Both the position numbers and the translations under genes were made by a program. Below the pieces are notes generated by a model. The model was given only the letters and a program-made list of their open reading frames with translations. It was not told the DNA's origin and did not search any database. Shown here one piece after another: positions 29,059-63,800 of a DNA stretch of 64,000 nucleotides (positions are counted from its first letter, which is position 1; the number at the start of each line of letters is the position of its first letter). Source of the DNA: Podospora anserina. Its lineage: Eukaryota. The stretch lies in NCBI GenBank assembly GCA_017654855.1, contig CM030338.1:1054001-1118000 (forward strand), read 5' to 3'.

Positions 29059-32000
29059 ATGGCGACCACCTCTAACATGTTCCTGTACTCGTTGACGATC
29101 CAGCCGCCAACCACGATATCGCAAGCGTTGCTGGGCCAGTTCTCGGGAACCAAAGAACAACAAATCATCACCGCCTCTGGCTCTCGCCTCACATTACTCC
29201 AACCAGACCCACGGCAGGGCAAGGTCAACACTATTCTATCACAGGATGTCTTTGGAATTATTAGGGCCATTGCGTCCTTCCGCCTTGCTGGCAGCCACAA
29301 GGGTAAGTCGCACTGTTGTCTTTCCCCCTACCTCAGTATCTTGGACACTTAGTGATTCGGTATCCGCTCCGCAGCTGTGGCGGCATGATGATCCTCCGCC
29401 TTGACTCGAAGCGGCCGTCCTCGGATCCATCACAGAGGGCCTTTGCGACGAGCCTTTGCTAAAAATTCATATGAGCCTAGACTACATCATCCTCGCGACA
29501 GACTCGGGCCGTATCGCTATCATCGAGTACCTGCCCAAGACCAACAGGTTTAATCGCATCCACCTAGAGACCTTTGGAAAGTCGGGTGTTCGACGTGTTG
29601 TACCTGGCCAATATCTTGCCGCCGATCCCAAAGGAAGAGCCTGTTTGATTGCCTCGCTCGAGAAGAACAAGCTTGTCTACGTCCTTAATCGCAACGCCCA
29701 AGCAGAGCTCACCATCTCCTCGCCATTGGAAGCACACAAGCCCGGTGTCTTGGTGCTTTCGCTCGTCGCCCTCGATGTTGGATACGCCAACCCTGTGTTT
29801 GCAGCCCTGGAGCTCGACTACACCGAAGCAGACCAGGACCCGACTGGGCAGGCTGGTCAGGAGCCAGAAGCACAGCTTGTATACTACGAACTCGATCTCG
29901 GTCTGAACCATGTGGTTCGCAAGTGGTCTGACGCGGTGGACCCAACCTCTTCGTTACTTTTCCAGGTTCCCGGCGGCAGCGATGGTCCTAGTGGTGTTCT
30001 GGTCTGCGGCGAGGAAAATGTTACTTATCGGCACTCGAATCAGGAGGCTTTCCGCGTACCAATTCCACGACGGCGGGGTCCTACCGAGGATCCCCAGAGA
30101 AAGCGAACCATTGTCTCGGGCGTCATGCACAAGCTCAAGGGCAGCGCAGGTGCCTTTTTCTTTTTGCTGCAGACAGAAGATGGGGATCTCTTCAAGGTCA
30201 CGCTGGATATGGTCGAGGACGACAATGGGAACCCCACCGGAGAGGTGAAACGACTCAAGATCAAATACTTTGATACGATTCCAATAGCCACAAGCTTGTG
30301 CATTCTCAAGAGCGGTTTCCTCTTTGTGGCAAGCGAGTTTGGCAACCATTCTCTGTACCAATTCGAAAAGCTCGGCGATGATGACGAGGAACTCGAGTTC
30401 TCGAGCGAGGAGTTCCCAACAGACTCTCGTGCCGCGTACAATCCGGTATACTTCCAGCCTCGCCCACTCGAAAATCTGACTCTAGTCGAGAGCATCGACT
30501 CGATGAACCCTCAAATAGATTGCAAAGTGGCGAACTTGACAGGAGAGGACGCGCCGCAAATCTACTCGGTGTGTGGTAACGGTGCGAGAAGCTCTTTCCG
30601 TATGCTTAAGCATGGGCTGGAGGTATCAGAAATTGTTGCCTCGGAACTCCCTGGCACACCTGCTGCAGTCTGGACGACCAAGCTCACAAAGTACGACGAA
30701 TACGATGCTTACATTGTTCTTTCGTTCACCAACGCGACATTGGTATTGAGCATTGGCGAAACCGTCGAGGAAGTTAGTGACAGCGGATTCCTCACCACTG
30801 TGCCAACATTGGCTGTCCAACAGCTGGGCGAGGAAGGTCTTATTCAGGTTCACCCCAAGGGCATTAGACATATTGTCCAAGGTCGTGTTAATGAATGGCC
30901 AGCGCCTCAGCATCGGTCGATTGTGGCTGCCGCTACCAATGAGAATCAAGTCGTCATTGCTCTGAGCTCGGGCGAGATTGTGTACTTTGAGATGGATGCA
31001 GATGGATCTCTCGCCGAGTACGACGAGAAGAAGGAAATGTCTGGTACCGTCACGTCTTTGAGTTTGGGAAGGGTACCGGAAGGCTTACGGCGGAGTTCGT
31101 TCTTGGCTGTTGGGTGTGACGACTGCACTGTGCGCATTCTCAGCCTCGACCCGGAATCCACCCTCGAAATGAAGTCGATCCAGGCTCTTACAGCGGCGCC
31201 GGCATCGCTTTCCATCATGTCTATGGAAGACTCGTTCGGTGGCACCACCCTATATCTGCATATCGGCTTACACTCTGGTGTCTACCTCCGAACTGTGTTG
31301 GACGAGGTCACTGGTGAGCTTACGGACACCCGTCAAAAATTCTTGGGCCCCAAGCCCACCAAGCTCTTCCAGGTTTCTGTGCAGGGGCGGCCATGTGTGC
31401 TCGCCCTGAACTCCCGCCCATGGTTGGGCTACACGGACCCTATTACCAAGGGTTTCGTAATGACACCGCTGAGCTATGTAGATCTTGAGTATGGATGGAA
31501 CTTTAGCAGCGAGCAGTGTCTGGAAGGCATGGTGGGTATCCACGCCAATTTCCTCAGGTACGTTTTTAATCTCTTTCTACTTCCGCTGCTGTATGATGAT
31601 AAAAGGGATTCCTATGCAATTGCTATGAGGGTTGATTACGACGCCAGTCGTATCAATTGTTCCTTCTGAAGAAGCTGTTTTATACCTTGTTTCGATACTT
31701 TGTTGGTAGTTTTCTTGCTAACTGGAGAGTTAGAATCTTCACCATCGAGAAGCTCGGGGACAACATGATCCAAAAGTCCATTCCTCTGACCTATACACCA
31801 AAGCGCCTGGTCAAACACCCCGAGCAGCCCTACTTCTACACCATCGAAGCCGACAACAATACTCTCCCACCGGAGCTCCGGGCGCAGCTGCTGGCTCAGT
31901 CTAATACTAATGGTGACGCAGCCATTCTGCCGCCAGAGGAGTTTGGCTATCCCAAGGCCAGGAACAGGTGGGCATCGTGTATCAGCATTGTCGACCCTGT

Positions 32001-55545: not shown

Positions 55546-56403
55546 CTTTCAGGTTTGCTTTTTCTTTTTCCAAAGTGTATAGTTGTCGGAAGTGGGTAGT
55601 TGCACATGGACATTATATAATTTCTGCTGGTATAAGGCGATGTACTATGCAAGTGTGAGTGGAATAGGGAATTGGAAAATGGTGTGGTTCGGTGTGTGTA
55701 AAAGTAGGTAGATAAGGTAGATGGTTGCCTGCTCTTGTGGAGGATTCGGTGAGATGACTGGATGCCAACAAGGAAGAGAGATGAGGTTGCTGCCTGCGAG
55801 AACACGTGTTGTGGAACTGGGTACAATGGAGAAAAAACGATGTTGATGGGACGATGTGATGGAGGACAACAGATCGGGGGTGAGGACCCGATGGGGGATG
55901 CTGTGTTACGGCTTGCGGGGTGATGCACATCATGCTGCTAGCCGGGAGGGGGATTACACGATAGGGCGTGGGGGGAAATGAAACTCGGATGCCTTATTCC
56001 GGATTCTCGGTGACGTGTTGCATTGGTTCGTTGAGCATGTCTGGGTCGGAGAGAAAGCACCCTCACGAGAAAACAGTTGAGACAGCAACAGTAGGTTAAA
56101 CACAGTAATATTGTAGACCGTACACCTCGAAAGACAATCGTCAGGCCTTTAAATATATTCAAAAGGGCCTATTAACTTACTTTTAAGGCACGGTTAACTC
56201 CCATATAACATAGATTGATTCCATTTTTCGTTGTGCCAATTATTTTTTTGTGGGTAGGTGAGAAGAAGTCATGAAGAGGTCGTCAGTTCACTACAAGTCA
56301 GAGTCGAACTGAGTGGACGTCAAGATCAGGGGCACATCTTCCTTATCAACCAAACAACTCCCCCAAAAAACCACATGTCACCTCACCTACCACCAGTGGT
56401 GGC

Positions 56404-56792
56404 AAAAATGCGAGAAATCCCCCACGCAGTCATCCCAACATTTAACTCAATCCTTCCCTGTCCCAGAGGGCCATGGGGGAGAGCCCCGGCGCACTCGTGG
56501 CATCAATTTATCACTCGGTCTCACAGATCCAAAGTTTCCCCCCTGGAGTTGCCAGGGGAAATTTCGTCATCTACCATGCCAAACAACAAGTGTTGAAGTA
56601 TCTGTGCGCCGGGTCATGAACAACTGCTAACCCTACGACTTGAACGTAGAAGCTCTGCCGATGTTGCTGCTACCAGTTTGAACGGCTCTAACCCCAAACT
56701 TGACAGTGGTTTAGGTTTGAGACTCATTTTCTTTCTTTTTTTGCTTTTTTTTTTTTTGCGAGGCTGCGTGCTGACCGTTGCACCAATTGGGG
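56404..56792 (-). ncRNA. tRNA-like Pol III ncRNA with acceptor-stem insertion, copy C (about 374 nt plus trailer)
   Basis: CCCCAAT TG GTGC AACGGTCA GCAC (D arm/A box); T arm CTACG-TTCAAGT-CGTAG; GCAGTTGTTC (56627..56618) pairs with GGATGACTGC (56435..56426); then GT GGGG G ATTTCTCGCA TTTTT. Confidence 0.75.
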
Positions 56793-57030
56793 GGGTTCTC
56801 TGGTTGCCGGCAGAGCAAGTCGAACTTGGCTGATAAAACGGCAGGCTGGCAGGCAGGCAGGCAGAAAGACAGACATTAGATGATGATGTGCAAAAAAAGA
56901 GAGAGCAATATGGAAAGCAGCAGCATGGGACATTTCAACATGTATTTTACTGACGAGATAATATTAAAGATGAAAATGATGACAGTTGTGTGTCTGTGTG
57001 ACGACAATAGTCAAAAGTTCAGAACCCCCC

Positions 57031-57118
57031 TGACGATGAGAATGCATTTGACGAGAGGATTTACTTGACGATGAGAATGTATTTGAAGAGGAGCATATAC
57101 TTGATGACGGGATGGAGG
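57031..57118. repeat. Degenerate 17-18-bp tandem repeat (TGACGATGAGAATGYATT-like) in the spacer between tRNA-like copies B and C
   Basis: About five imperfect units aligned by eye. Confidence 0.6.
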
Positions 57119-57205
57119 TATGTAATGGGGTATGATGACGGTAAAGGCATACAGCAATAGACCACAATAAAGGCACTTAAAAAGACATCATCAGAAAATA
57201 AAAAT

Positions 57206-57443
57206 AAAAAAAGAATGTGAGAAATTCCCATGCAGCCATCCTTCCTCCCCCATACGGGGTAGCCAGTGGGTCGAGAACGACACGGAGGTCAATAGAGGGA
57301 CTTGCTCCCCCGAGATCTTCAACGATCCCATTGGATATGTTCAAGATCCTGCTCTCTAAAGGAGAGACAGCTGCAAACCCTGCGACTCGAACGCAGGACC
57401 GCTGCCTTTGGGGCAGACATGCTAGCAGTTACACCAATCGGGA
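57206..57443 (-). ncRNA. tRNA-like Pol III ncRNA with acceptor-stem insertion, copy B (about 219 nt plus trailer)
   Basis: TCCCGAT TG GTGT AACTGCTA GCAT G TCTGC CCCAAAG GCAGC GGTC CTGCG TTCGAGT CGCAG has exact tRNA spacing. GCAGCTGTC (57374..57366) pairs with GATGGCTGC (57240..57232); then AT GGGA A TTTCTCACATTC and T7. Confidence 0.8.
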
Positions 57444-57521
57444 GTGTTTTCTTTGTTGATGAGAGAGTAGTTGGGCAGTCGCTCGATAAGGCAGCAGGCA
57501 GGCAGATATCGGATGGTATAT

Positions 57522-57710
57522 AAGGAAGGAGCAGTATGAAAAGAGCAACATAGGGAACAGTAGCATGAAAAGGAGAAGCCTGAGAAAAAGCAGTAAGGGG
57601 AAAAACAGTATGGGGAAGTGCTATATAGGGAAAAGAAGCATGAAAAAGAAGCATGGAAAAGAGAAGGATGGAAAAAAGAAGCATGGGGAAATATAACACA
57701 GGGGAATACA
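57522..57710. repeat. Degenerate about 15-bp purine-rich tandem repeat (GAAGCATGGAAAAAA-like) in the spacer between copies A and B
   Basis: About 12 imperfect units, also visible as a pentapeptide periodicity in minus-strand ORFs (FPMLL FSILL FSMLL; SPYCF SPYCF). Confidence 0.6.
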
Positions 57711-57812
57711 CCTTGGCATATAGCATCTTCAACATACATATTGCTAAGGAGGTAAGGGTGAAGACCTGGGACAAAAGGATAATGGCCGTCTATGTGATAG
57801 ATAAAAAAAGTC

Positions 57813-58233
57813 AAAAAATGAGAACCCCCGAGCAGCTACCTCACTGCACCCCCACGGTCATCTTTCTGTTTTTTTCTTTCTTTGAGAGCATATTTGCGGC
57901 TTTAGCTTTTCCTCTCTTGTAGAGGAATCGGTTTCGACACGAGCGAAGTTTTTGTTCTTATACCCTCTAAGGGGACCAAGTCTGAGATGCATGCTCAGTT
58001 TTTTTTTAGATAGCATGCACCTTCAGATATATACTCCGTTTTGTAAGGAGGGCAAGCCTGTACGTGACCGTGGAAGTGCAACCTCTTATAGCACTTTTGG
58101 CTAATAAGAGGGAAATAACTGCAAACCCCACAATTCGAACGTGGGACCTAGCTAACACCCAGGACAGGAAGGTATCTTTTTTGACCTTCCTACCTAATGC
58201 TTCGCTAAATGCTTCCAATTACACCAGTTGGGG
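57813..58233 (-). ncRNA. tRNA-like Pol III ncRNA with acceptor-stem insertion, copy A (about 409 nt plus trailer)
   Basis: CCCCAAC TG GTGT AATTGGAA GCAT; T arm CCACG-TTCGAAT-TGTGG; GCAGTTATT (58122..58114) pairs with GGTAGCTGC (57840..57832); then TC GGGG G TTCTCA TTTTTT. Confidence 0.78.
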
Positions 58234-59564
58234 TTTGTTCTCTGGTTGCCGATTGAACAGGCAAGAGGATGGGATTATAACGAACCTAGAAGACGGGGAC
58301 TGAAATTGCTCGTTAGGCAAGAGAGACCGGGGTTTGAGTTTGGGAAGGAGATGGCATATGGAGAGGAAGGAACGTAGCGTCATTGCTATGTGGGCCTGTT
58401 GAGACGGAATGGGGAAAATATCAAAAGAGCAGATAAAAAACATTGCTACACAGTCCAGGAGTACGAAGATGATAAAGCAATGAAAACGCTGACTTGATAA
58501 TCATTACCGGGGCAATGCTCAACCAGATAGGCAGCAGCAAACAACATGACGGGTCCCAACTCTCGTGGTAATTGTCGATGACGAACCAGACAACATTTGG
58601 AGCTGACAGGCAGCAAAAACATGCCTTCCTACATCCAAAGCACTGCACCATGCCCCATTTACTCATCAGCTGTCAAACAGGGCGCCAGCCGGACAAATTT
58701 GGAAAGTGGCCAGGTCAAGATAGAAGAGCAAAAGGTACATGAGCACAAGATGTTGACCTACATCTTTGTCAGTGATGCCTGTAAATCATCACTTACCTCC
58801 AACATTATTATCCACCTCCCCGTTTCCCCCGGACCCAACCCCGAAGCCCACCGGCCCCCTCCGGCCGGGCTACCCCCGACTCCCATCCGGAAGACGTGTT
58901 TCACCCCGGTTCCTCAACCGACCTCCGCCGGCCTCCACCTCCCACATCCCCACTTAGGGCGTTCAACGGTTTCAGAATGCGTGCTTTACACACCAGGAAC
59001 CTTGGCTATCGTCAACTGCCGGCCGCTTGCCAGCCGGGGCTGGATGGATAATGCGAGACCAAAGGGCAATAGATCCGGGACCATTGAAGAAGGTGAACAG
59101 ACCGCTTTTTTGTTATCGGCGACTGATCCAGATGAACTGAGGTCTAGACTTTCGTCAGATGAGGGATAGGGCGATGGAGATGGCAGAGTGGAGGGAATGT
59201 TGCTCGGTGAGAGGATGAGGGTTGCATCTGGACGACAGCACACGAGAAGGGCTGGGAGAGGATGTGACGACGCACAAAAATTGTGTAAGAGAGGCAGAGT
59301 GGGCGTTTTGGGGGATTGACTTTCCACCTTTGTCACAGCTGCACCTACAGATCTGTATGGCCAGTCCGAACTGTCAGTGTCAGTGTCAGTGTCATCCGAA
59401 GCCAAACTCAACCCATCCAACTCCGACAACTCCCATCCTCTCCTCCTCCTCCTCGCATCTTCCTTCGCTTGGATAATACCAATCCTTCCTCCCCTTCGGA
59501 CCCCGAATCCCCAAAATTCCCTCCTCTGCTGCCGTGTGATGAACCGTGTCCTTCTGCTGTTCCC

Positions 59565-60121: not shown

Positions 60122-60847
60122 TTAAGCAAGGAGAGCAAGGACACCGGCAAAGGCGGCGAGGGCAATGCTGCCACCGACGGTGGAGGCACCGGCGGTGAAG
60201 ACAGGCTGGGGAGGAGTGGTGCCGGAGGGGACGCCACCGGAGGGAACGGCGCCGGAGGGAGCAGGGACGCCGGGGACGCCGGGAGCACCGGGGCCGCCAG
60301 TGGGGCAGGGGACCTCGACGGTCTCGTAGATGACGGTGGGGATGACCGTGGTGATGGAGGTGCTGATGGTCTTGATGGAGGTGCCGGGGCACTCAGGAGC
60401 AACAGTGACGAAGGTGGGGATGGGAGCGGGCTTGGTGGGCTCCTCGTGGCCGGAGGTGGGGTAGGGAGGGTGCTCGACAGCGGTGGTGTTGGAGTAGTGG
60501 TGCGAGCTGGTGGCGATGGGGGTGGGCTCGACGTCGGTGACGGGGCAGACGGTGGTGGAGACGGCGATGGTCTCGGTGACGACGTGGGTGGCATCAGCGG
60601 GGCAGTCGGTCACGGTCTCAGCGCAGTCGGTGACGGTGTAGGTCGAGGTGGCGTAGATGGTAGAGGTGGTGATGGGGAAGACGGAGCTGGTGACAACGGT
60701 GGCGCTGGCAGGGCAGTCGGTCACCTCAGGGACGCAGGAGGTGACGGTGTAGTACTCAGTAGAGTAGACGGTGGAGTGAGCCTCCTCCGCAACATCCTGG
60801 GCAATGGCAGCGCCAGCGAGGGCAACGGCAGCAACGGCGAAACGCAT
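60122..60847 (-). CDS. GPI-anchored Ser/Thr-rich cell-wall protein
   Basis: Signal peptide MRFAVAAVALAGAAIA, repeated TVTxC..VTDCPA motifs, C-terminal FTAGAS plus hydrophobic tail, strong codon bias, no intron. Confidence 0.88.
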   Translation of the reverse strand: MRFAVAAVALAGAAIAQDVAEEAHSTVYSTEYYTVTSCVPEVTDCPASATVVTSSVFPITTSTIYATSTYTVTDCAETVTDCPADATHVVTETIAVSTTVCPVTDVEPTPIATSSHHYSNTTAVEHPPYPTSGHEEPTKPAPIPTFVTVAPECPGTSIKTISTSITTVIPTVIYETVEVPCPTGGPGAPGVPGVPAPSGAVPSGGVPSGTTPPQPVFTAGASTVGGSIALAAFAGVLALLA

Positions 60848-63800
60848 CTTGAAGGTTTGGGGGGGTTGGTTCGTTAAAAACGAGGATAGATGTGAGTGTT
60901 GTAGAAGGGGGTTGGTAAAGACCGACTAAAGCTATAGAGCTTAAGAGTTGTTGTTAAAGAATGGACGACCGAAGTCAAAGAGCTGGAGACAATTGGCTGT
61001 GTGAGCTGAGGAAGGAAAGAGAAAAGAAACAGAAGTTCGGCGGACGGCGGTCATTGTTAAATATCCATCCCCCGGGCACCTCGACTTGCGGTGCACAACA
61101 TGCGGGAAATTACCGTCAGCGCCGGCTGCCCAATTCGGTGGACGCTAATCCAGGGGCTCGGTGGAGGGAACATTGAAGGCAACATCAACATCCCCGCCGT
61201 GGCTGCGGATCCCAGTGGTCCCCTGAGGATGCCCCCTGAGATGCACTGCAGCGACCGACCTTCTCCTTTGCGGAAAGAGACCCGCCGAGTAACAAGCCAG
61301 CTACCCCCTATCCAGATAGCACCGAGACAGGGGTCTGCTGTGCTCTCGAAATCTGGGTTGGTCAACGCGAGGCGCTTACAATGTCTTGTGGTCTGCTCAT
61401 GAATTTGACCAGTGCAACCCTTCTGATTTGGCTAACCAGCGCCTCTCTTCCGCCGGTTTTTCCAATTTCGTCTCTGGCCAGTTCACCGCAAGAGATTCCC
61501 CGTTTGCTGCACTCCCTTTAGCAGACCCGGTCATGATCTGATAGTGGATGGGACCGGATACAAAACAAGCGGTCGAGGCGGTGGAGGAAAGGTGGAGAAG
61601 CCGGCCTCTCTCCGCATTTTCTGGACCTGGGTGCCCGTTGCCCATGTGCGCCCGTGCTGTAACGGTCGGCCAGAAAACTGCCGCCAACAACGACGCGTGC
61701 GGTGAGCCGTGACGGGAGCACACCCACTGCGCTACTGTGCGTTGCGGGGCGCGTATTTGCTTGCTGGATTGCCAGGTGTTCCTCGACGTGGTTTGTTTTG
61801 TGTGATGGCAATGCTCAATGCTCCCTCCATCTCGTGGCATTGAAACAACACATGGCCTGGCAAAGTGCTTGCAGGAGGACCTCAGACCTCGAAAATGCTC
61901 GATCATGAATTTTCGATGAGTGGCAGCTGACAGCGGTCAGCACAGACGCGGCACTGTCTGAAAGGCAGTGTACGTAGACTGCTTGAATATAACCAGACGC
62001 TAATGCAGGTACCATGAGATGCGCGCTTTTGATTCGATGTCTCTTTTCAACACTAATCCCAGGACCCTGCCAAAACAGAAGCGAGATCACAATTTCTGAG
62101 CCAACGCCCACCGCCAGAAATTGTGATGAACGCCACAGCTAGGAAAAGATCTCTTTTCCTCTTGGGTCGCACTGCTCTCCGCGCCTGTTTCTTGCCGAGA
62201 AGGCTTAATCTCGTGGAACGATCTCTTGGAAGCCGGGAATTTCATGCATCGTCCTTGTGCCCGGAGTTGAGTCCATCGCCTTGTCGTCGTCCGTTGTCGT
62301 GGCTGTTCAATGGATCAGCAGTTTCAAGATGCTGCAGAGGGAAGATCTTGTGGTGATATTTCCACATCAATCCGGAGTCGGAGAGTCAGAAGAAGAGTCG
62401 GAAGAAGGAGGATGACGTGAGGTTCTCAGTCATCAGAGGAAGGTTTGACAAGATCACCGTTCGTGCCTTGTTTTTCGTACCCGTTCAGCCGTTCCTGCCG
62501 TTTACGCCGTTGCCAGATGCAAATTTGTGTTTTCGATATCTCTGGGCACGCACTGGACCAACAAGCCATCAACAGTCTCGGCCCGGCCATTGGAGCGTCA
62601 TTTTGTGGTGTGCCAATTCTGGCGACATCGTTGCGGAACAGCCTTTCCTGATTTGCTCGCAGTTCAAGATTGGGACTCGGCCCTTTCGCCCAGTCAGAGC
62701 CATCGAATCTCAAAATCCCCCATTTCTGTCATTACACCGCAAAAAAGCTTCATCGAGACAATCAAGACATCACCAAGCAATGCAACCCTCATCCTTGTCG
62801 TCGACGAGCGGTCAAAGACACCTCGGCGGTCACGCATTTTCTCCCCACAAAAGGAGACAGCCGGGGTGCATCATGCATGAGCACGGCTGCCGATATATCT
62901 ATCGTGGCGGCCGCTGGTGCAGATCACTGCACCGATCCCATTGCAGCTTGACCGACTCGATGTTGCTAGAGACACAGTCTCACCTCCACGGAGTGATTCG
63001 AGACTTGTTGCGCCTCGCAGACGACGATACCTGACGACCAGCTGAACTGGAGCAGAGCCAGTGGCTGAAAGGGACAGCACATGACACATTCCAGCATGCT
63101 TCCGGAGCCTTCATCTGGATCTTCTGGCCAACTCCCCTCCATGGATGTGGATATCAGTTGCAAAGACTTGGGGAAGCTCGTTGGCCCCCTCGATGGCGGA
63201 TCAAACTTGTCGGCCGAACTCATGCTTCGACCTCGTCTATCACTGAGTTTGTGCGACATACGGACCCCGGCATCATTAGGCTTTTTTCTTGTTGCTGTTT
63301 CGGCAGAGGTGCAAGTGCACTTCGTGTCATCGATTCTCTTTGGGCTTCTTATACAGTCATCAACTCACCTCAGGAGCGCTGACCTCAGTCCTTCAAGTGA
63401 AGATCAGGTGCCTTGGCACTCTGGAAGATGCAGAGAGCAATCTGTTCATAAAGCATTTTGGGCTCACAGTATTGACAACTATACAGTACGGCGTCACCGA
63501 GACTGACAGAGGGGCTTTCTGGGATAATTCACAGCAAACGAGGCGATGCAGACCAAATGGACGACCAACAGGAGCGATTGCGATCTGGACCGTATTCAGT
63601 GACCAGCGACAAGCTGTGTTCATCATCACGACACAGCAAAGCGGCAACGTCCGAGAAGGCTTTCCGGACCCGGTGTGGATTCACGGTGTGGCGGTGCTAA
63701 TGGCGGTCGGGCTTGCAAAAGGAAGATACCTAGGAGAGACCGGGGCCGGACCCGTTACTGGGTCGGAAGCGGCTCTTCGCCGGGGAGGGACAAGAATCAC

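Follow-up and report, generated by a model that had tools for sequence, protein, structure and literature searches.

The locus considered here raises the question of what kind of RNA gene can keep the plan of a tRNA while one strand of its acceptor stem is interrupted by a large folded domain. It lies in a 64,000-nt stretch of the Podospora anserina genome (GenBank assembly GCA_017654855.1, contig CM030338.1, forward-strand positions 1,054,001 to 1,118,000; hereafter the window, numbered from its first letter) and consists of three co-oriented tandem units on the minus strand, A (58233-57813), B (57443-57206) and C (56792-56404), which share a single architecture. With a probability that we would put at roughly 55%, these three units are tandem paralogues, diverged from one another, of a gene that derives from a tRNA and has the layout of a type-2 RNA polymerase III (Pol III) gene; each of them would give rise to a non-decoding minus-strand RNA of 219-409 nt. 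The common architecture, its strand, the selection acting on its structure and the folding of its inserts emerge directly from the comparison of the three copies, and are presented first.

Architecture of the three units

A single regular expression, built from the architecture described in an initial annotation of this DNA, fits all three units at the coordinates given above, and the proposed three-unit organization therefore stands. The units were compared by a motif-anchored parse; whole-unit alignment with MAFFT misaligns the variable regions. Read from 5′ to 3′, each unit begins with YCCC (bases 1-4), RAYT (bases 5-8), a G and a D arm of the form GTGY-8 nt-GCAY, followed by a variable anticodon region, a 5-bp T stem with a TTCRART loop, GGTT and one linking base. 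The 3′ part comprises GCAGYTRTYN, an insert of unconserved sequence, NGRTRRCTGC, two linking bases, GGGR, the discriminator, a trailer containing TTCTC, and a run of T residues. The distance from base 1 to the discriminator is 409 nt in A, 219 nt in B and 374 nt in C, in agreement with the RNA sizes anticipated by the initial annotation (about 219, 374 and 409 nt), here as predicted lengths. The D-arm pattern GGTGYAAYNGNNAGCAY has three matches in the window, with 0.17 expected, and the block GTTCRARTNNNNGGGTTWGCAG also has three, with 0.01 expected; all of these matches are on the minus strand and lie within the units.

The GGTT following the T stem pairs with bases 5-8; the local pairing of GTT with bases 5-7 that had been proposed earlier thus holds, but is longer by one pair. 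In each unit, the T stem itself may also be drawn as a helix of 6 bp. Between GGTT and GGGR, the partner of bases 1-4, there are 143-291 nt, and the acceptor stem is not continuous. The point at which the grafted domain branches off the acceptor 3′ strand lies between positions 68 and 69, at a three-way junction with links of 1 and 2 nt, and the base of the domain's closing helix (GCAG/CTGC) is invariant. Folding of the whole units A, B and C returned this layout unprompted, and the minimum free energy (MFE) fold of unit A reproduced the proposed architecture with a z-score of -5.75.

In unit A (57813-58233), base 1 is at 58233 and the discriminator at 57825, with TTCTCA and T6 at 57824-57813. 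Its tRNA-like 5′ module (58124-58233) reads CCCC AACT G, followed by the D arm GTGT-AATTGGAA-GCAT, a 64-nt anticodon region in the form of a long hairpin, the T arm CCACG-TTCGAAT-TGTGG, and the GGTT that pairs with bases 5-8; the grafted domain (57832-58122) has a 10-bp closing helix (GCAGTTATTT/AGGTAGCTGC) enclosing an insert of 271 nt. In the shorter unit B (57206-57443; base 1 at 57443, discriminator at 57225, TTTCTCACATTC and T7 at 57224-57206), the 5′ module (57376-57443) consists of TCCC GATT G, the D arm GTGT-AACTGCTA-GCAT, an ordinary-looking anticodon arm in a region of 22 nt, with the loop CCCAAAG, the T arm CTGCG-TTCGAGT-CGCAG, and GGTT, and the closing helix of the grafted domain (57232-57374; GCAGCTGTCT/GGATGGCTGC) encloses 123 nt. 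Unit C (56404-56792) has base 1 at 56792, the discriminator at 56419, and ATTTCTCGCA with T5 at 56418-56404. Its 5′ module (56629-56792) contains CCCC AATT G, the D arm GTGC-AACGGTCA-GCAC, an A-rich anticodon region of 118 nt (with runs of A13, A7 and A4), the T arm CTACG-TTCAAGT-CGTAG, and GGTT, and its grafted domain (56426-56627) has a closing helix (GCAGTTGTTC/GGATGACTGC) around an insert of 182 nt. All these features are on the minus strand.

Conservation of base pairing

The pairing core comprises 27 pairs in five helices (1-4/GGGR, 5-8/GGTT, the D stem, the T stem and the 10-bp closing helix). Standard pairs were found in all 81 cells (27 pairs in three copies), whereas sliding the 3′ partner by 1-3 columns reduced this number to 29-39 of 81. 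When the 3′ letters were shuffled among the copies, every cell was still paired in 332 of 20,000 trials. Variation was observed in 14 of the 27 pairs and in 19 of the 54 columns, and in all 19 columns the changes are transitions, with no transversions; by way of comparison, identity in those parts of the spacers that can be aligned is 63-67%. Five pairs have changed on both sides: base 1 and its partner, pairs 2 and 3 of the T stem, and pairs 5 and 10 of the closing helix. The T stems (CCACG/TGTGG, CTGCG/CGCAG and CTACG/CGTAG) differ in sequence yet pair in all three units, base 1 and the distal end form C-G in A, T-A in B and C-G in C, and the 10-bp closing helix is paired in each of the copies, with six of its 10 pairs variable. 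The initial annotation had drawn attention to each of these three patterns, and the counts confirm them.

The core-pair table contains 20 G·U cells among the 81, and no A·C cells. Neutral drift by transitions should yield G·U and A·C intermediates alike, but only G·U is seen, and the wobbles would be mismatches on the plus strand. Selection therefore acts on the minus-strand RNA, the structure of which is conserved: the minus strand of the units is under structural selection at the RNA level.

The grafted inserts as folded domains

No 7-mer is common to all three inserts, and the search for shared cargo motifs or targets of the inserts within the window yielded only chance matches of 9-14 nt. 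The fold of each insert with its closing helix was scored against 200 dinucleotide shuffles. The domain of unit A has an MFE of -103 kcal/mol and a z-score of -7.04, with no shuffle as good; the z-scores for B and C are -3.01 (0/200 shuffles as good) and -3.26 (2/200), respectively. In all three cases, the fold of the minus strand surpasses that of the plus strand (z-scores of -7.7 and -5.0 for A, -2.8 and -1.5 for B, and -3.3 and -2.2 for C), whereas neither of the two spacers is structured on the minus strand (z about +1). The 10-bp closing helix is formed in the minimum-energy structure of each domain. The inserts share no sequence and yet fold strongly on the minus strand; they are therefore independent, strand-specific folded domains, with a sequence that is free to change.

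Folded inserts of this kind might be the source of small RNAs. The tRNA-like body would then provide a Pol III start and cuts by RNase P and RNase Z, and the helices of the insert would be diced into milRNA-like RNAs, as for Neurospora milR-4 or the tRNA-miRNA genes of MHV68. The predicted fold of insert A does contain a 10-bp helix, a helix of roughly 17 bp and a hairpin of 14-15 bp, the last of which matches a miRNA family weakly (E 0.51, at 22.5 bits, where the gathering score is 47). However, the hairpins of the inserts are short and branched, rather than clean precursor stems of ~22 bp, and the cargo is nested within the tRNA-like fold instead of lying downstream from it. Furthermore, a simple tRNA-hairpin precursor would need neither a conserved closing helix nor a 3′ acceptor strand. 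We consider this explanation improbable, although it fares no worse than any other alternative discussed below.

Pol III hallmarks

The A-box consensus quoted in PMC2566860 (TRGYnnAnnnG) is matched by all three units and the B-box consensus quoted there (GWTCRAnnC) by two of the three. The 1002 nt of the units contain no internal run of T4 or longer, as against 17 such runs on the same strand of the two spacers, which total 782 nt, whereas A4+ runs number 10 in the units (seven in A, three in C) and two in the spacers; the absence of internal T4 runs from units rich in A-runs (A and C), remarked upon initially, is therefore real. The sequence of the units thus combines an A box, a B box, an oligo-T end and the lack of an internal terminator, as in type-2 Pol III genes.

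A TTAT word, found within TTATAA in the case of unit A, occurs at -47 of A (58277-58280, minus strand), -46 of B (57486-57489) and -44 of C (56833-56836). It is a candidate upstream TATA-like element, which would sit near -30 of a transcription start located 10-20 nt upstream of base 1; the existence of TATA-dependent Pol III genes in fission yeast is the basis of this possible promoter role. The 15 nt directly upstream of A and C (GGCAACCAGAGAAC, minus strand; 58237-58251 and 56795-56809) are identical, compared with 63-67% identity in the spacers, and could be a start-site element, a functional leader or the product of recent gene conversion. The leader of unit B is a purine-rich variant of this 15-nt sequence.

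Contigs from sequencing runs

Of the sequencing runs listed, none is recorded as RNA and six are guessed to be RNA; contigs over the array were obtained from four of these six, belonging to four studies. The RNA nature of these runs is a guess, resting solely on their patchy cover, and the contigs carry no information about strand, ends or levels, and drop rare forms. In each of the four runs, a single contig spans unit C and its insert with no joint, which shows only that this unspliced stretch was present in those libraries. Unit B and its near flanks (57196-57537) have zero cover in the four runs, and unit A is represented by patchy low-depth pieces only (57670-58007 and 58103-58330), neither of which constitutes evidence for or against expression or splicing. 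No splice joints were found in the contigs of the four runs, from which rare forms drop out, and these runs yielded no further contigs at 90-99% likeness to the units. The end of a contig from run X15 at 58230, 4 nt inside unit A, was considered as a cleavage site and rejected, as contigs from runs X18 and X19 cross this position.

The units might alternatively be cut by RNase P and RNase Z from an array-spanning non-coding transcript of RNA polymerase II (Pol II), in the manner of mascRNA and MALAT1. The contigs of unit C pass both of its predicted ends in all four runs, and others cross the 5′ end of unit A (58177-58330 and 58103-58285) and its T runs (57670-58007 and others). The unit C contigs fit read-through or a longer transcript, possibly made by Pol II, as well as they fit a Pol III unit. 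Nevertheless, such an origin would leave unexplained the T5-T7 ends of the units, the lack of internal T4 runs next to the 17 of the spacers, and the retention of the A and B boxes and of the TTAT word at a fixed distance, and the contigs invoked in its favor are those of uncertain nature, with neither strand nor ends, described above. It can be given only a small chance of being correct, similar to that of the small-RNA precursor.

Contigs also cover the region upstream of unit A (58230-58880, 58305-58655 and 58655-59000+). The interval 58234-59000 has no convincing open frame and may be a non-coding transcript or a long untranslated region of the minus-strand gene at 60122-60925.

Relationship to tRNAs and to known RNA families

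The units have kept the tRNA positions U8, A14 and A21 and the T54-T55-C56-R57-A58 loop, together with G18G19 in A and C. ARAGORN nevertheless found no tRNA genes in the 64-kb window, and called none of the native units with either default or intron-allowed settings. The combination of a 5-bp anticodon stem, a 7-nt loop and U33 is absent from all three: the CCCAAAG loop of B has C33, and the corresponding regions are the 64-nt hairpin in A and the 118-nt A-rich stretch in C. In the failure of tool recognition, the lack of a continuous 7-bp acceptor stem and the lack of a standard anticodon arm, the units depart from canonical nuclear tRNAs, supporting the conclusion that they are not ordinary tRNAs.

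The covariance models of Rfam 15 gave no match at gathering score in the window, as the initial annotation had expected, and this null result agrees with its failure to recognize the units as signal recognition particle (SRP) RNA, RNase P/MRP, U6 or any described family; snoRNA, Y and vault RNAs are also among the families with no match. At E<=10, the matches in the interval 56000-58700 were limited to three unrelated models, mir-7360, Giardia U2 and sR52, each scoring well short of its gathering threshold. Readings of the units as an SRP Alu domain, RNase P/MRP, small nucleolar RNA (snoRNA) boxes or a spliceosomal intron were considered by eye and dropped, for want of either Rfam support or the defining motifs.

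When the link, helix, insert and link were deleted in silico, GTT and GGGR together paired with all seven bases of YCCCRAY in each of the three units. With introns allowed, ARAGORN then called the insert-less unit C as a tRNA (Ala, cgc, 85-nt intron). Unit C was called natively and in both insert-less versions at pseudogene stringency, whereas A and B were called at this setting only in the insert-less versions from which the extra G after the T stem had also been removed. These calls speak for descent of the units from a tRNA. The results are also compatible with a new type of acceptor-stem intron, the excision of which, followed by ligation, would generate small RNAs that resemble tRNAs and have an unbroken acceptor stem of 7 bp. 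However, a bulge-helix-bulge cannot be drawn, as GTT and GGGR, the ends of the exons, are unable to pair with one another. The absence of a 7-nt anticodon loop from A and C, the C33 of B and the extra G between the T stem and GTT are also difficult to reconcile with such an intron, which would, moreover, not require a highly structured interior. An intron is accordingly unlikely, and more so than either a small-RNA precursor or a processed Pol II transcript.

History and surroundings of the array

The array is a segmental tandem duplication, of which the residual spacer homology of 63-67% bears the trace. The spacer between B and C contains a relic of an A-like 3′ end (G6-TTCTG-AAC-TTTT-GAC; 57010-57030, minus strand) that lacks a closing-helix strand. 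The corresponding alignment, of 57829-57728 with 57029-56934, has 65% identity over 102 nt and is located about 190 nt downstream from the 3′ end of unit B, suggesting that unit B formerly had a longer insert or that a unit was partially lost. The hypothesis that the units are decaying tRNA pseudogenes, or that a small inverted-repeat transposon landed in a tRNA gene, which then underwent tandem duplication, such that the closing helix is a terminal inverted repeat without function at the RNA level, could draw on this duplication, on the decayed 3′ end at 57030-57010, on the GC content of the array (0.453, below that of the rest of the window) and on the rejection of the units by tRNA finders, but it is as unlikely as an intron and the least compatible of the four alternatives with the pair counts, because the variation of the helix columns (19/54) is about that of the spacers, and yet these columns remain paired in 81 of 81 cells, with 20 G·U, no A·C and no transversions, and because the inserts are strongly folded on one strand only.

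From one T-arm block to the next, the distance is 747 and 748 nt (56610-58148), even though the inserts, anticodon regions and spacers that separate these blocks vary by as much as about 150 nt each; this near-equal spacing may be a coincidence or a constraint. The spacers contain degenerate short tandem repeats (CATGCTTCTTTT-like upstream of B, 57541-57686, and CTCATCGTCA-like upstream of C, 57031-57108, both on the minus strand), and a 15-nt insertion behind 57606 in one contig of run X17 indicates that the number of repeats varies between strains. The interval 56001-58000 is the 2-kb bin with the lowest GC content in the window (0.453, versus 0.48-0.58 elsewhere). This low GC content and the restriction of helix changes to transitions could partly reflect repeat-induced point mutation of the tandem copies. 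Elsewhere in the window, an open frame at 29405-31669 on the plus strand (754 residues) corresponds to the middle part of the splicing factor Rse1/SF3B3. Its identity to the proteins of Cladorrhinum and Podospora fimiseda is 91-93%, and to those of Chaetomiaceae about 90%, which places the host within Sordariales, close to Podospora.

A proposed tRNA-derived scaffold with a grafted domain

We favor the reading of the units as members of a small family of Pol III-type genes that descend from a tRNA. The predicted RNA would have an L-shaped tRNA-like core, made up of the acceptor stem, the D arm and the T arm, which would tolerate expansion at two sites: the anticodon arm and the acceptor strand, the latter by a large, independently folded domain. 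The tRNA body would supply both the promoter and a fold recognized by tRNA-handling proteins, and the grafted domain would be retained in the mature molecule, either as cargo or as an expansion that the core tolerates. The initial annotation had proposed a non-decoding tRNA mimic with variable cargo; the constrained tRNA-derived units, the folded grafts and the Pol III hallmarks of that proposal are upheld here, whereas transcription by Pol III, retention of the insert and use of the tRNA-handling machinery we infer. The roles suggested there (milRNA precursor, decoy or RNP scaffold) and end processing of the tRNA type are possibilities only.

Several observations weigh against this reading. 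All the support for it comes from three paralogues at a single locus, and the sole look across species, a metagenome scan with the pattern CGTTCRARTNNNNGGGTTWGCAGYT, identified no relatives: its two loci, in bacterial-looking coding DNA, have neither the D arm nor the architecture and are therefore chance matches. The B box of unit A misses the last base of the consensus, with a T instead of a C, unit B has no G18G19 doublet, and the terminator of unit C is merely T5. The absence of T4 runs from the units is marginal with respect to dinucleotide shuffles (joint value 0.0525), and the pairing of leader and trailer (GAGAA/TTCTC) does not reach significance, with equally good pairing by 49, 74 and 69 of 500 shuffled trailers. 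The Rfam tRNA model has no match in 56000-58700 even at E<=10. Finally, the contigs of unit C begin 130-230 nt upstream of base 1 (up to 56920-57021) and extend 117-265 nt past the T5 (to 56139-56287), beyond another T6.

A bolder and distinctly more tentative proposal is that the units belong to an undescribed class of eukaryotic Pol III RNAs, which would be natural tRNA scaffolds with a fast-evolving domain of 140-290 nt in the acceptor 3′ strand. Cargo of this kind might be handled by, or might titrate, the tRNA machinery, and the paralogues would diversify their cargo under compensatory changes of the scaffold. The machinery concerned would be RNase P and RNase Z, the CCA-adding enzyme, and export and elongation factors, through which the cargo could be made, end-processed, stabilized or moved.

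Comparison with known systems and implications

Modules resembling tRNAs have been reused in tmRNA, viral tRNA-like structures, mascRNA and tRNA-miRNA genes. The units described here resemble nuclear tRNA genes in their A and B boxes, oligo-T end, D and T arms, U8, A14, A21 and T54-T55-C56-A58, and in a 7-bp acceptor scheme with a discriminator. They differ from these genes in the break of the acceptor 3′ strand after position 68 by a folded domain of 143-291 nt, in the unconserved anticodon arm (22-118 nt), in the pyrimidine at base 1 and in the extra G after the T stem. The bacterial tmRNA and YrlA RNAs likewise join a tRNA-like elbow and acceptor to a large structured domain, but in these molecules the large part replaces the anticodon arm, whereas the graft of the units leaves the acceptor 3′ strand. 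Archaeal and red-algal tRNAs carry non-canonical introns, and these, too, are foreign sequences away from the anticodon position, the removal of which restores a continuous stem; the units differ from them in having no bulge-helix-bulge, in residing in a fungal nuclear genome, and in their non-decoding anticodon regions.

Genes of the type of Saccharomyces cerevisiae RPR1 and SNR52 also have their A and B boxes in a tRNA-like 5′ part preceding the bulk of the RNA, and an 84-nt tRNA-like promoter is given for RPR1 in PMC2566860. In the units, by contrast, the 5′ part folds as a cloverleaf-like core, the 3′ end returns to pair with bases 1-4, and the downstream domain is nested in the tRNA fold rather than appended to it; according to Rfam, they are neither RNase P RNA nor snoRNA. 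In Neurospora, tRNA-linked milRNAs made by Pol III have been demonstrated (PMC3547838). The milR-4 and MHV68 tRNA-miRNA genes combine a tRNA moiety and a structured non-tRNA RNA in one transcript (PMC3547838), as the units would if transcribed by Pol III, but they contain complete tRNAs followed by hairpins, whereas the extra RNA of the units is much larger and lies inside the acceptor stem. Fungal tRNA-derived short interspersed nuclear elements (SINEs), such as the AfuSINE2 families as outlined in PMC5063351, have a tRNA-related 5′ part with A and B boxes, followed by unrelated sequence. Unlike SINEs, the units were seen in the window as three tandem copies only, with homologous spacers and selected helices, and they have no A-rich, simple-repeat or LINE-like tail: their GGGR-N-TTCTC-Tn end pairs with bases 1-4.

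Our searches of the literature turned up no description of such genes, nor any described nuclear gene family in which a large structured domain is grafted into the acceptor stem and kept by compensatory evolution. The Podospora anserina genome paper counts 361 tRNA genes and 28 RNA genes or elements that are neither tRNA nor rRNA, with none of this kind among them (PMC2441463), and units rejected by tRNA finders would escape the annotation search behind such a list. If the RNAs are made as predicted, it may be asked whether RNase P, RNase Z and the CCA-adding enzyme can handle an acceptor stem from which a side arm projects at a distance of four base pairs from the end, and the question of which partners the variable domains bind would become a concrete one. 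Units of this type would then constitute blind spots of tRNA finders and of Rfam in the annotation of fungal genomes.

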